Source: Escherichia coli (lineage in GTDB: Bacteria; Pseudomonadota; Gammaproteobacteria; Enterobacterales; Enterobacteriaceae). Taken from it: DNA of 64,000 nucleotides. A program made the position numbers. Positions 48,401-51,400 of the stretch are shown here, piece by piece (position 1 is the first letter of the stretch; every line of letters starts with the position of its first letter). The stretch lies in assembly GCF_003991155.1 (NCBI RefSeq), contig NZ_CP031297.1; one strand, 5' to 3'.

Positions 48401-51400
48401 GTATAGGTAGAGCTGAAATAGATGCTCTCGAAGCAGATGAAATAACTCAGCAATTAGGAATATTCTTGGGGCTTATAGCTGGACTGACTTATGCTGGTTA
48501 CTCATTTGCAGTGAAAAACATGATAAGCAAAGGAATGAACTCTAGATCTGCCATGGCTAGCTTATTTGGTATTGCAGCAATAATTTTGCTGCCATCTCTA
48601 TTTATCACCGGAAAAAACCTATTTACCACCGTAGAAAATTCCATGGTTGCTATCTACATGGCTGTGGTCCCGATGTTTCTTGGTTATTTATTATACGGAT
48701 TCGGCCTTCGCACCATTGATGCAAGTACTGCAACAATCATCACTTTAATTGAGCCTTTAATTGCTTCGATTCTGGCAGTATGGATTATCGGAGAGGAGTT
48801 TAAACCAATAGGTTGGATGGGCATGGGGCTTGTTTGTGTATGCCTGTTAATTCAATCTGTTAATGTAAAATTAAAACATCAAAACACTCAACTAAGAAAG
48901 GTTGGTTAAAGATTTATAATTTGGTTGTAAATATCCTTTAATCTACTGACTCCCATTTTTTATCTAAGAAAACGATCGATTGACTTAACGACCTTTCAAA
49001 CTTGTGATTATGAGATAGTGCAGCCAGTGATTAAGGTGATAAATTAAGACGACGTTTTACAACTATTGATTGCGAACCTTGTCTTATGTCCGAATCGCAA
49101 CTAAATACCTTACTCGCGGAAGCGATCTCATCTATAAGTTCGACACGATTTACGTTAAGTCTGATGCGATTTTTAAAGCTCCTAGGCTCCTACGATAACG
49201 CTGTGATTCTGGGATATGCAGCTGGTAAACATCCGGTATACCTATTTGATTCCCTTGAATCCAACAGACACCTGCTGTTTCAGCAGTACCTCACGAGCAC
49301 TTTTCAACAAGACCCGTTTTATCACCAATTACTAACGCGCCAAGAAGGTGTTTTCAGCCTTAAGCAGGTCATCAAACAAAGGGAACATCAGGATTATTTG
49401 CATCAATTTTATTTGCAAACAGGCTGGCAGGATGAGTTATGTCTTTTGATTAACATCGGTGCAGAACGCGATGTGTTGATATTTCTCGGCGTTACCAATG
49501 AAAAGAGTCGTTTTACAGCTGACCAGCTCGTTTGTTTCAAACAACACTTTGCTGTGATCAAAGCTTTATGCCAACAACACTGGCAACATGCTGCCTTTAA
49601 TTTGGCGCAATCATTCAACGAGATAGTTATCAGCCGAGCCACAATGAGAAGCTATGTGGATGAATCAATACAGACATTCGCTCAATCTGTATTGACGAAA
49701 CGACAGCAACAAATTGCTAGCCTGCTGGTACAGGGTTTGGATAGCAGTGAAGTTTCAGCACAGCTTGGGCTATCAATTGGCACTGTGAAAAATTATCGCA
49801 AACAGATCTACGCTCAATTACATATCAATTCTTTAGGTGAGCTTTTCCAATTATTCCTCAATCATCTCCTGACACATGCCCCTGATTAATTTTCGAAACC
49901 ATCCCTAAAGGGACATAGGCATATCAAAGTGCACTCATTAGTGTTGCCGTATTAACAGAACTAAGCGGGAAAAATTATGGATACGGCACTCTTGAGCGAT
50001 TTAGAACGGCGTGGTTTGATAGCGCAATCGACAGATATCTATTCACTAAAAGTATTATTAAGCTCACCGCAAACCCTTTACTGTGGCTTTGATCCGACAG
50101 CGGGAAGCTTGCATATTGGTCACTTAGTGCCGCTATTGCTCCTGAAGAGATTTCAAGACGCCGGGCATAAAGTTATTGCTTTAATCGGCGGTGCTACAGG
50201 CCTTATCGGTGATCCAAGTTTTAAAGCCTCTGAACGCAGCCTCAACAGTACTTCGACAGTTGCGGGCTGGGTCAACGATTTATCTGTGCAAATTTTGAAT
50301 TTACTACAACCACGGCTAAATCAACCTTTGCAACTTGTTAATAATGCCGATTGGATCCATCAACTGAACGTGGTCGATTTCTTTCGTGATGTAGGCAAGC
50401 ATTTTTCGGTCAATAACTTACTTAACCGCGACTCAGTAAAACAACGTTTGCTGCGACCAGATCAAGGGATTTCATTTACAGAATTCAGTTACAGCTTGCT
50501 ACAAGCTTTCGATTTTTCTGAACTCAATGAAAGGTATGATTGTCGCTTACAGATAGGTGGTAATGATCAGTGGGGTAATATCTTAAGTGGTATTGATTAC
50601 ACCCGGCGCAGAAATGGGCGTGAAGTTCATGGCTTAACTTTGCCTTTGATCACAAAATCCGACGGCACAAAGTTCGGAAAATCTGAAACCGGAACTGTTT
50701 GGCTTGATGCAGCCAAAACTTCGCCCTATGCGTTTTATCAGTTCTGGTTAAACACAGCAGATTCCGATGTCTATCGTTTTCTACGGTACTACACCTTTTT
50801 GAGCTGCGATGAAATTGACCGTATTGAAAATGAGGATAAAGCTAACCACCAGAAGCCTCAGGCCCAATATATTCTGGCGAAAGAACTGACTCAATTTGTG
50901 CATGGTGAAAACGGACTCCTGCATGCGCAACGGATCACTGAAGCCCTGTTCACAGGTAGGGTTCGGCAGCTTCAACTCAGCGAGTTAAAGCAGTTGGAAC
51001 TGGATGGTTTACCAACATGGCATATAAGTAGCCATGATTTAACCGAAGCCCTGATAAAAAGTGGGTTGGCAGCGTCAAAACGTGCCGCGAGAGAATTGTT
51101 AGCAAGTGATGCGATTCGAGTCAATGGTGAAAAAGTTACGGCTGAGCAAAACGATTTGGGATTTGCGCTCTTTGACCAGTACTGGATCCTGCAAAAAGGT
51201 AAAAAACACTTTGCGTTGCTTAAACGTTAAAACAGCAAATTCAGGGCATGCATTGCAGGTCTGATCTGCATCAATGTCCGCAATTAAGACGTTGCGGACA
51301 GTTATTTTTCTACGACATTTAGTTCTTTCTTCGTCAGCTATTCGCTCATAACAGACGATCAAGTAACTGGATGATTGCTGAACATGGTGGTTCCGTGAAA

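Follow-up and report, generated by a model that had tools for sequence, protein, structure and literature searches.

A conserved LuxR-type regulator and tyrosyl-tRNA synthetase gene pair, predicted to form a self-contained switchable module, carried by an insertion in an IncC plasmid

Within the 64-kb stretch of Escherichia coli contig NZ_CP031297.1 analysed here (the window), a VqsR-like LuxR solo regulator gene lies directly ahead of a complete tyrosyl-tRNA synthetase (TyrRS) gene. We think it probable, though some way short of secure, that the two form a self-contained module in which the regulator switches a conditionally expressed spare type-1 TyrRS, drawn from a Rheinheimera-like lineage and now carried as IncC cargo. 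The pair and its predicted signals are as follows.

49086..49889, + strand: VqsR-like LuxR-family solo regulator, 267 aa, with an N-terminal LuxR-type ligand-binding fold of ~170 aa and a C-terminal GerE HTH
49901..49914: palindrome ATCCCTAAAGGGAC, predicted operator of the regulator
49939..49944, + strand: -10-like hexamer TAGTGT, predicted tyrS promoter, 24 nt past the palindrome
49977..51230, + strand: tyrS, complete type-1 (E. coli/Bacillus-like) tyrosyl-tRNA synthetase, 417 aa
51275..51300, + strand: intrinsic-terminator-like hairpin followed by a T-run, 45 nt past the tyrS stop codon, from a terminator scan

A preliminary description of this DNA had proposed a complete class I TyrRS with intact signature motifs beside a LuxR-type regulator, and both open reading frames proved to be as described. 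The TyrRS scores 382.3 bits on the TIGR00234 (tyrS) model over residues 2-415 (cut-off 113.8, E=3e-114) and has HIGH at residues 46-49 and KFGKS at 232-236. Its full length, C-terminal S4-like domain included, can be aligned with E. coli TyrRS 6hb5 (E=4e-148); its PDB matches were 6otj and 6hb5 (E about 1e-150), and its cluster relatives carry Pfam domains PF22421 and PF00579. The tyrosine-pocket motifs YCGFDP, GDPSFK, SYxLLQxxD and GGxDQWGN are kept, as are those of the ATP site, and a motif alignment revealed a canonical active site with no diagnostic substitutions. Clade-specific differences from E. coli TyrRS are conservative, and none obviously lies within the pocket. As judged from its sequence the product is likely to be an ordinary enzyme that charges tRNA(Tyr) with tyrosine. 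The hairpin 3' of tyrS folds as RNA at -15.2 kcal/mol (z=-3.8). The regulator has its GerE/LuxR HTH (PF00196, E=5e-12) at residues 201-255, a match shared by all 28 family members searched. No Pfam match to the autoinducer-binding domain PF03472 (Autoind_bind) was found in the regulator; both sequence and structure make its N-terminal domain a homolog of the VqsR ligand-binding domain, and residue C162 is invariant.

With a view to placing the enzyme we compared it with host chromosomal tyrS copies, as the preliminary description had suggested. The tree set the plasmid TyrRS apart from the enterobacterial clade and assigned it to a Rheinheimera-like lineage, while the enterobacterial host gene, in its pdxH-tyrS-pdxY context, belongs to a different clade. 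Given this placement and only ~60% identity to E. coli TyrRS, the plasmid tyrS represents a second copy in enterobacterial hosts.

Retrieval of 80 genome loci with the regulator as sole query showed a type-1 tyrS adjoining it in 75, and three of the other five loci were truncated. The regulator and TyrRS protein trees are congruent (r=0.92). Flanking-ORF clustering across 84 loci found luxR and tyrS as the only common families, with no third conserved partner such as dtd, a tyrosine metabolism gene or a synthase, which argues against a linked luxI-type synthase, though an unlinked one may exist; the genes listed at these loci include no luxI-type gene. The pair occurs on chromosomes of Vibrionaceae, Alteromonadales, Halomonadaceae, Aeromonadaceae and Rheinheimera, and on the plasmid tyrS starts 87 nt downstream of the regulator gene. 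These comparisons show a conserved, co-evolving two-gene unit with a conserved predicted operator, and a regulator family whose link to tyrS is nearly one-to-one in several gammaproteobacterial orders. Dedicated DNA-binding proteins rarely control bacterial aminoacyl-tRNA synthetase genes.

The window is part of an IncC plasmid, with 100% identity to pVb2175, p5_SCLZS62 and others. The suspicion that tyrS sits on a mobile element was confirmed by a 15,073 bp insertion in the helicase gene of the plasmid, previously recorded as a "15.1-kb inserted region uvrD" of function not clear (PMC11350614). Backbone homology ends at 36385 and restarts at 51459, and plasmid pS471P_P1, whose site is empty, has the flanking CTCTAC once.

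36386..51458: transposon-like insertion, 15,073 bp, carrying the regulator-tyrS module
36380..36385: left 6-bp target-site duplication, CTCTAC
51459..51464: right 6-bp target-site duplication, CTCTAC
45625..46776, - strand: membrane GGDEF diguanylate cyclase (TIGR00254, E=6.5e-48)
47156..48909, + strand: AraC-family regulator (47156-47875) and EamA/DMT transporter (47965-48909), assigned by family matches

Gene order in the insertion runs from MFS, OMP, RND and MFP genes (all - strand) through an AdeR/AdeS-like two-component system (+) and the GGDEF gene (-) to AraC, EamA, LuxR and tyrS (all +). Independent modules are pieced together in this cargo: RND with the two-component system, GGDEF, AraC-EamA and LuxR-tyrS. 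The AraC regulator and the EamA exporter were located upstream of the pair, where the preliminary description had placed them together with LuxR and tyrS in a possible regulated resistance or export unit. Of that proposal the link between LuxR and tyrS stood, and proved stronger than proposed, as a conserved pair with a conserved operator, and the inclusion of AraC-EamA did not. Neither AraC nor EamA has a homolog near LuxR-tyrS in any of 86 other loci, the AraC-EamA pair occurs alone in loci L099-L101, and a Tn7-like element carries LuxR-tyrS without it. On these comparisons AraC-EamA is a separate regulator-effector pair outside the tyrS module.

The module is native to chromosomes of aquatic Gammaproteobacteria, and capture from a Rheinheimera-like lineage made it cargo of the 15-kb insertion. 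At least two mobilisation events are seen, one represented by this insertion and one by the Tn7-like element in Providencia, and RND efflux genes accompany the module in both. Among 72,556 plasmids it was found on 22, and it was absent from all 5,426 complete E. coli genomes. Evolution of tyrS among the plasmid variants is under purifying selection (dN/dS 0.02-0.07).

The most serious competitor of a functional module, which we consider possible and clearly the less favoured, is that the pair is inert, part of a donor chromosomal segment that travels with the RND-efflux genes and is silent or neutral in enterobacterial hosts. Its derivation from chromosomal loci of a Rheinheimera-like lineage speaks for this, as do the nearest named relative of the EamA protein, also from Rheinheimera, the patchwork cargo and the low prevalence; the purifying selection may predate capture, having accrued in donors. 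Against it, the Tn7-like element represents a second independent capture of a diverged copy (62%/70% identity), and all three plasmid variants have kept the open reading frames, operator, promoter and terminator intact, with a nearly invariant intergenic region. The preliminary description had itself allowed that the gene might be simply the passenger chromosomal tyrS of its donor; this is correct as to its source, a chromosomal locus of the Rheinheimera-like lineage, but the gene brings its own regulator and promoter. Even if neutral, the module documents the marine/aquatic (Rheinheimera-like) origin of cargo entering clinical plasmids.

Evidence for a switch comes from the region between the two genes. 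The palindrome has the family consensus AACTGTCCC-TTTA-GGGACAT, and a search of the window with RTCCCN4GGGAY returned 49901..49914 as its sole match. Every locus has a conserved palindrome, exact in 71 of 81 luxR-tyrS intergenic regions, whereas the 837 kb of flanks outside these regions contain 3 matches; it is also kept where the two genes are divergent in Aeromonas. An alignment of 73 distinct sequences anchored on the palindrome uncovered a -10 of the form TAnnnT at a fixed 24 nt downstream of TGTCCC-N4-GGGACA (T 66% at offset 39, A 82% at 40, T 82% at 44), with the palindrome centre near -43.5, and no conserved -35. On the plasmid the predicted tyrS transcription start falls at about 49950-49952, 7 nt past TAGTGT. 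Spacing from palindrome to -10 toward tyrS is identical in the divergent Aeromonadaceae loci. In class II activation a lux box is centred near -42.5, and the layout here corresponds to such a lux-box-like class II activator geometry. We infer that a regulator dimer binds TGTCCC-N4-GGGACA, whose centre lies ~43 bp ahead of the point where tyrS transcription should begin, and may activate tyrS as LuxR does at the lux box, a class II role suggested by a promoter that has a TAnnnT -10 but no -35. The N-terminal domain probably responds to a small ligand. Cyclic di-GMP was considered for this part, since a GGDEF gene adjoins the pair or lies close by on each of the two mobile elements, and was not supported: VC0464, the Vibrio cholerae ortholog, gave background signal in a V. 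cholerae DRaCALA screen. The GGDEF protein of the insertion is 46% identical over its full length to a MASE8-GGDEF protein of the Providencia Tn7-like element, whose gene adjoins LuxR-tyrS there.

It is rather unlikely, on our estimate, that within the same module the regulator is instead a repressor or autoregulator holding tyrS off, or that the palindrome serves as nothing more than a terminator of luxR. Binding to an inverted repeat and direct inhibition of qscR are reported for VqsR, and the site abuts or overlaps the -35 region, where repressors also act; but activator-dependent promoters typically combine, as here, a non-consensus -10 with no conserved -35, and a centre near -43.5 fits class II. 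The location of the palindrome just past the luxR stop codon in co-directional loci would suit a terminator, a reading that was rejected: its hairpin (-4.5 kcal/mol, z=-0.2) is no stabler than shuffled sequence and lacks a U-run, and it is kept in the promoter regions of the divergent Aeromonas loci, which have no use for a terminator. With no terminator between the genes, read-through is possible in co-directional luxR-tyrS loci. No T-box or other RNA leader was detected by Rfam search of positions 46500-51800 at E<=1.

In V. cholerae the module orthologs VC0464/VC0465 are dispensable: VC0465 (tyrS) is non-essential and the type-2 tyrS VC0631 essential (PMC3799429). Since its ortholog is dispensable, the module TyrRS is not the housekeeping enzyme of V. 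cholerae. The type-2 TyrRS does the housekeeping there, with the module ortholog as a proposed conditional spare, and in enterobacterial plasmid hosts the module supplies a second type-1 TyrRS under its own predicted switch. This may explain a published puzzle, the retention by V. cholerae of a dispensable second TyrRS. Among chromosomal carriers of the pair a second TyrRS is established for V. cholerae, and "spare" would be the wrong word for Aeromonas if this TyrRS is the sole one there. Searches for functional literature on VC0464/VC0465, tyrS-1/tyrS-2 or LuxR with tyrS found nothing beyond essentiality data; no experiments with any protein of the regulator family came to light, and VC0464 is named in no main text of the library searched.

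In line with the role that the preliminary description had envisaged for an accessory synthetase, the plasmid enzyme could be a resistance determinant, insensitive to a natural TyrRS inhibitor or better at rejecting toxic analogues of tyrosine, for example D-Tyr, DOPA, azatyrosine and halogenated or nitrated Tyr, with the regulator sensing the compound and inducing the enzyme. We regard this as improbable. An accessory synthetase with a dedicated ligand-type regulator is the layout expected of an inducible resistance or quality-control paralogue, and the dispensable V. cholerae ortholog, at least two captures each beside RND efflux genes and purifying selection on the module all agree with it. 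The active-site motifs are however canonical, with conservative clade substitutions not obviously in the pocket; no inhibitor-biosynthesis, dtd or tyrosine-metabolism genes are conserved nearby, and no biosynthesis or immunity context for a TyrRS inhibitor was found around the module. The module is also rare, the neighbouring EamA exporter is functionally unlinked, and the literature yielded no phenotype for an insertion whose function is called not clear (PMC11350614). The broader idea that VqsR-like regulator and tyrS form an unrecognised, widespread inducible defence or quality-control module against a TyrRS toxin or damaged or analogue tyrosine is in our view equally doubtful; if true, repeated capture by transposons and broad-host-range MDR plasmids would be bringing such tolerance to clinical Enterobacterales. 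It is very improbable that the TyrRS works outside translation or in some specialised way, as a sensor or in supplying Tyr-tRNA to a secondary-metabolite or cell-envelope pathway: duplicated synthetase genes sometimes gain such roles (PMC9437257) and the V. cholerae ortholog is dispensable, but the protein is full-length and canonically built, its tRNA-binding C-terminal domain included, and no tRNA-dependent biosynthetic genes are conserved nearby.

Precedents for accessory synthetases have been reviewed and include plasmid IleRS2 with mupirocin, inducible TrpRS1 with indolmycin and Bacillus subtilis TyrZ with D-Tyr (PMC9437257). A close parallel to the switchable module is B. subtilis tyrZ, also a second TyrRS gene beside a dedicated transcription factor, the MarR-type YwaE, whose accessory and highly L-Tyr-selective product is thought to be expressed under particular stress only (PMC9437257). 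In contrast with tyrZ-ywaE, a type-1 accessory enzyme is paired here with a type-2 housekeeping one, at least in V. cholerae, the regulator belongs to the VqsR-like LuxR solos where B. subtilis has a MarR-type protein, neither a T-box nor any other Rfam element is present, and luxR-tyrS is found on plasmids and transposons as well. Staphylococcus plasmid IleRS2 (mupA, mupirocin resistance) is likewise an extra synthetase on a mobile element beside the housekeeping enzyme; the system described here differs in having a canonical active site, its own ligand-type regulator and no known link to an inhibitor. The Enterococcus tyrS of the tyramine (TDC) cluster is another second, regulated TyrRS-like gene, expressed according to tyrosine level and pH (PMC3315439), but it belongs to a Gram-positive organism and is linked to tyrosine decarboxylation genes and without a LuxR-type protein regulator.

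Among regulators, LuxR, TraR and LasR share the fold of the ligand-binding and HTH domains, and at their lux-type boxes a dyad likewise replaces the -35 at about the same distance from the -10; the module regulator differs in lacking an Autoind_bind match, and its palindrome is 16 bp with a 4-bp spacer compared with a 20-bp lux box. Pseudomonas aeruginosa VqsR (PA2591), an orphan LuxR-type protein, acts on quorum-sensing genes via TCGCC-N8-GGCGA and has no link to tyrS, whereas the module regulator is tied almost one-to-one to tyrS with a predicted site TGTCCC-N4-GGGACA. For the orphan LuxR solos of this family, a definite candidate target is now in view, along with a predicted operator and promoter layout. 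TyrRS is being developed as a drug target, which makes a mobile, regulated alternative TyrRS worth knowing. The module now travels alongside NDM-type resistance on IncC/IncU plasmids, and also on a Tn7-like transposon, and offers a tractable test case for whether accessory synthetases beyond IleRS2 add tolerance of antimicrobials or toxic amino acids.

As regards the insertion itself, no transposase gene was detected within its 15,073 bp. Its termini are TG...CA with TTACCAC(C) motifs repeated at both ends, and they resemble the multi-repeat TG...CA ends of Tn7/Mu-type elements. The 120-bp left end is also present in two other plasmids, in an uninformative context, and a Proteus mirabilis variant has the right end alone in common, a matching left end having been looked for there and not found. 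One further copy of the left end lies inside the insertion.

46935..47049, + strand: degenerate internal copy of the insertion left end, between the GGDEF and AraC genes

Its local alignment score is 79, compared with a maximum of 37 in 200 shuffles.

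Both open reading frames of the LuxR-tyrS pair were found at the positions the preliminary description had given them, and the best-supported interpretation of the locus is a regulator-controlled spare tyrosyl-tRNA synthetase (TyrRS) module that was captured as transposon cargo.

49086-49889, + strand: LuxR-type regulator, 267 aa, ending in a helix-turn-helix of the GerE/LuxR type (PF00196, residues 201-255)
49977-51230, + strand: tyrS, 417-aa product matching TIGR00234
51275-51300: strong hairpin with a T-run, 3' of tyrS

The synthetase scored 382 bits (E=3e-114, residues 2-415) against the tyrS equivalog model TIGR00234, whose cut-off is 113.8 bits, and aligned along its full length with type-1 TyrRS of known structure (6otj, E=2e-150; E. 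coli 6hb5, E=4e-148). The class I motifs HIGH (residues 46-49) and KFGKS (residues 232-236) are present and the ATP and tyrosine-pocket motifs are the same as those of the E. coli enzyme. An Rfam search returned no element, T-box included, at the locus. The plasmid protein is ~60% identical to enterobacterial chromosomal TyrRS, and the chromosomal tyrS genes of these bacteria lie in a pdxH-tyrS-pdxY context and outside the LuxR-linked clade; it is a second type-1 enzyme for enterobacterial plasmid hosts. In V. cholerae N16961 the regulator corresponds to VC_0464 (LuxR family, 804 nt) and the synthetase to VC_0465 (tyrS-1), both just downstream of pilT and pilU. Transposon sequencing found VC0464 and VC0465 to be non-essential and the type-2 paralogue VC0631 essential, with the authors remarking that the non-essential paralogue may be differentially expressed (PMC3799429), and the LuxR-linked clade is thus natively an accessory enzyme, at least in Vibrio.

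The pairing itself is conserved. In four relatives' contigs (a metagenome-derived chromosomal contig at 83% identity, V. parahaemolyticus, Shewanella algidipiscicola and one other assembly) a GerE protein of ~267 aa sits directly upstream of the TyrRS relative with the same spacing as in the window, and the flanks of these genes are otherwise unrelated. Using the alignment of the regulator family alone as query and one representative genome per species we obtained 80 loci, from Vibrio, Photobacterium, Pseudoalteromonas, Shewanella, Colwellia and Rheinheimera as well as Halomonas/Vreelandella, a Cellvibrionaceae MAG, Aeromonas, Zobellella and Oceanisphaera. A type-1 tyrS adjoins the regulator at 75 of them, and three of the remaining five are interrupted by a contig end. 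Most groups have luxR followed by a co-directional tyrS and the Aeromonadaceae have the two genes divergent. Clustering of all flanking ORFs gave no further gene family common to the loci. The neighbour-joining tree of the regulator is congruent with that of the TyrRS, with a correlation of r=0.92 between the pairwise distances.

Some RefSeq records carry a shorter regulator of 241 aa that starts at 49164 instead of 49086, 78 nt downstream. The 267-aa start is the conserved one in the family alignment and, because the first 26 residues are also conserved, the longer form is the likely product. No Pfam family, Autoind_bind included, matched the N-terminal ~170 residues, and a profile of the family matched 5xhx by sequence (E=2.4e-12). 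Invariant residues of the family are concentrated in this N-terminal domain, many of them aromatic or acidic (D37, Y52, D55, Y68, D76-P77, Y104, Y109, W114, E117), with a single invariant cysteine, C162. The Y...DP...W...G pattern bears a possible resemblance to the AHL-pocket residues found in TraR and LasR. Cyclic di-GMP was considered as a ligand and is not supported. The family is thus one of VqsR-like LuxR solos. VqsR itself, an orphan regulator of the LuxR type, binds TCGCC-N8-GGCGA and inhibits qscR (PMC3592444). No publications on the regulator family or its tyrS link were found in the literature searched.

A candidate operator and promoter lie between the two genes.

49901-49914: palindrome ATCCCTAAAGGGAC, the sole RTCCCN4GGGAY match within the 64-kb window
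49939-49944: -10-like element TAGTGT, the window copy of TAnnnT

The palindrome, TGTCCC-N4-GGGACA, recurs in luxR-tyrS intergenic regions; an exact match is present in 71 of 81 such regions (10.9 kb in total) versus 3 occurrences in the remaining ~826 kb of the loci, and close variants are visible in several of the other ten, which were not individually scored. Anchoring 73 distinct sequences on it revealed a TAnnnT element (T 66%, A 82%, T 82%) fixed 24 nt downstream, with no -35 conservation in the same set, and the spacing toward tyrS is the same in the divergent Aeromonas loci. This fixed spacing places the dyad centre near -43.5 of the predicted tyrS promoter, a position that matches class II activators, LuxR at the lux box being one example. 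The regulator would then activate tyrS from a class II site, and such activation would be the response to a signal. A terminator was ruled out since the RNA stability of the palindrome is no better than that of shuffled sequence and there is no U-run. In the Aeromonadaceae (Aeromonas, Zobellella, Oceanisphaera) a single palindrome lies between the divergent genes; a TAGCAT element at 19-nt spacing on the regulator side suggests autoregulation there.

The proposed mobile-element setting was confirmed, the pair lying in a 15,073-bp insertion with a 6-bp flanking repeat in an IncC plasmid. Backbone homology stops at 36385 within a UvrD-like helicase gene and returns at 51459, and CTCTAC is present on both sides of the insertion and as a single copy in an uninterrupted plasmid. 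The region is 100% identical to plasmids including pVb2175 and p5_SCLZS62. In a published account uvrD contains a '15.1-kb inserted region' that has 6-bp direct repeats and carries an RND transporter, of which the 'function was not clear'; tyrS is not mentioned there (PMC11350614).

36386-36510 and 51330-51458: insertion ends, imperfect inverted repeats of ~100 bp, tipped by TG...CA and containing several TTACCAC(C) motifs
36695-45611: efflux cluster, MFS plus RND tripartite set (adaptor, pump, outer-membrane factor) and a divergent AdeR/AdeS-like two-component system
46935-47049: degenerate internal copy of the left end, between the GGDEF and AraC genes

The gene order is MFS, outer-membrane factor, RND pump, adaptor and AdeRS-like two-component system (its matches to the AdeR and AdeS models, at E=2e-84 and E=4e-86, are under the curated cut-offs), followed by GGDEF protein, AraC, EamA, LuxR and tyrS, with no transposase gene within the 15 kb. 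The RND set has been called acrAB-tolC-like in the literature, its function given as unclear. The internal left-end copy (alignment score 79, shuffle maximum 37) suggests stepwise assembly of the cargo and hints at an origin in two elements or in a nested insertion.

In neighbour-joining trees the plasmid copies group with Rheinheimera pacifica, at 77% identity for the TyrRS and 70% for the regulator, and with two other assemblies, and the closest named relative of the EamA protein is likewise from a Rheinheimera. The pair is carried by 22 of 72,556 PLSDB plasmids, 20 at >=99% identity, one IncU plasmid of K. variicola at 97.9% and one IncC plasmid of P. mirabilis at 94.8%. It is absent from all 5,426 complete E. 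coli genomes searched. Between variants dN/dS is 0.02-0.13 for both genes and the intergenic region is nearly invariant. The P. mirabilis copy (p6Pmi283-NDM, NZ_CP077964.1, 164-186 kb) occupies another IncC backbone site, where a Tn3-family transposase and an integrase adjoin it, together with a toxin-antitoxin pair of the PemK/MazF type. In Providencia rettgeri and metagenomes a Tn7-like element (tnsABCDE) next to glmS carries a diverged copy of the LuxR-tyrS pair, whose regulator is 62% and whose TyrRS is 70% identical; this copy adjoins a MASE8-GGDEF protein 46% identical to that of the window and an unrelated, TetR-regulated RND pump. This element, seen in P. rettgeri GCA_000585235.1 (676-19000) and present on 25 contigs, is a second, independent mobile home of the module.

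A resistance role, as the preliminary description proposed, is possible: parallels to the architecture exist in tyrZ, an accessory TyrRS, in TrpRS1, which is antibiotic-resistant, and in IleRS2, which is encoded on plasmids (PMC9437257), and the module has been mobilised twice, but the TyrRS lacks diagnostic substitutions, no toxin or metabolism genes are linked near the pair and no phenotype is on record. The suggestion that the AraC-EamA pair forms one unit with LuxR-tyrS was not borne out. Neither has a homologue near the pair in 86 non-plasmid loci, the Tn7-like element carries LuxR-tyrS without them, and AraC-EamA forms its own two-gene unit in other contexts; the two pairs are separate.

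The insertion ends resemble the multi-site ends of Tn7/Mu-type transposons, yet the duplication is 6 bp and there is no transposase. Plasmids of Klebsiella electrica and Acinetobacter gerneri contain ~120 bp of the insertion's left end at 93-94% identity. P. mirabilis p6Pmi283-NDM has the whole 11-gene block (94% identical), with ISApu2 inserted between the GGDEF and AraC genes, and shares the right end of the insertion, while at the left end the first 100 bp are not shared. Elsewhere in the window, 1-20000 shows a GC mosaic (0.62-0.69 at 1-3 kb, 0.34 at 4-5 kb, 0.55-0.65 at 13-19 kb) typical of resistance-island patchwork.
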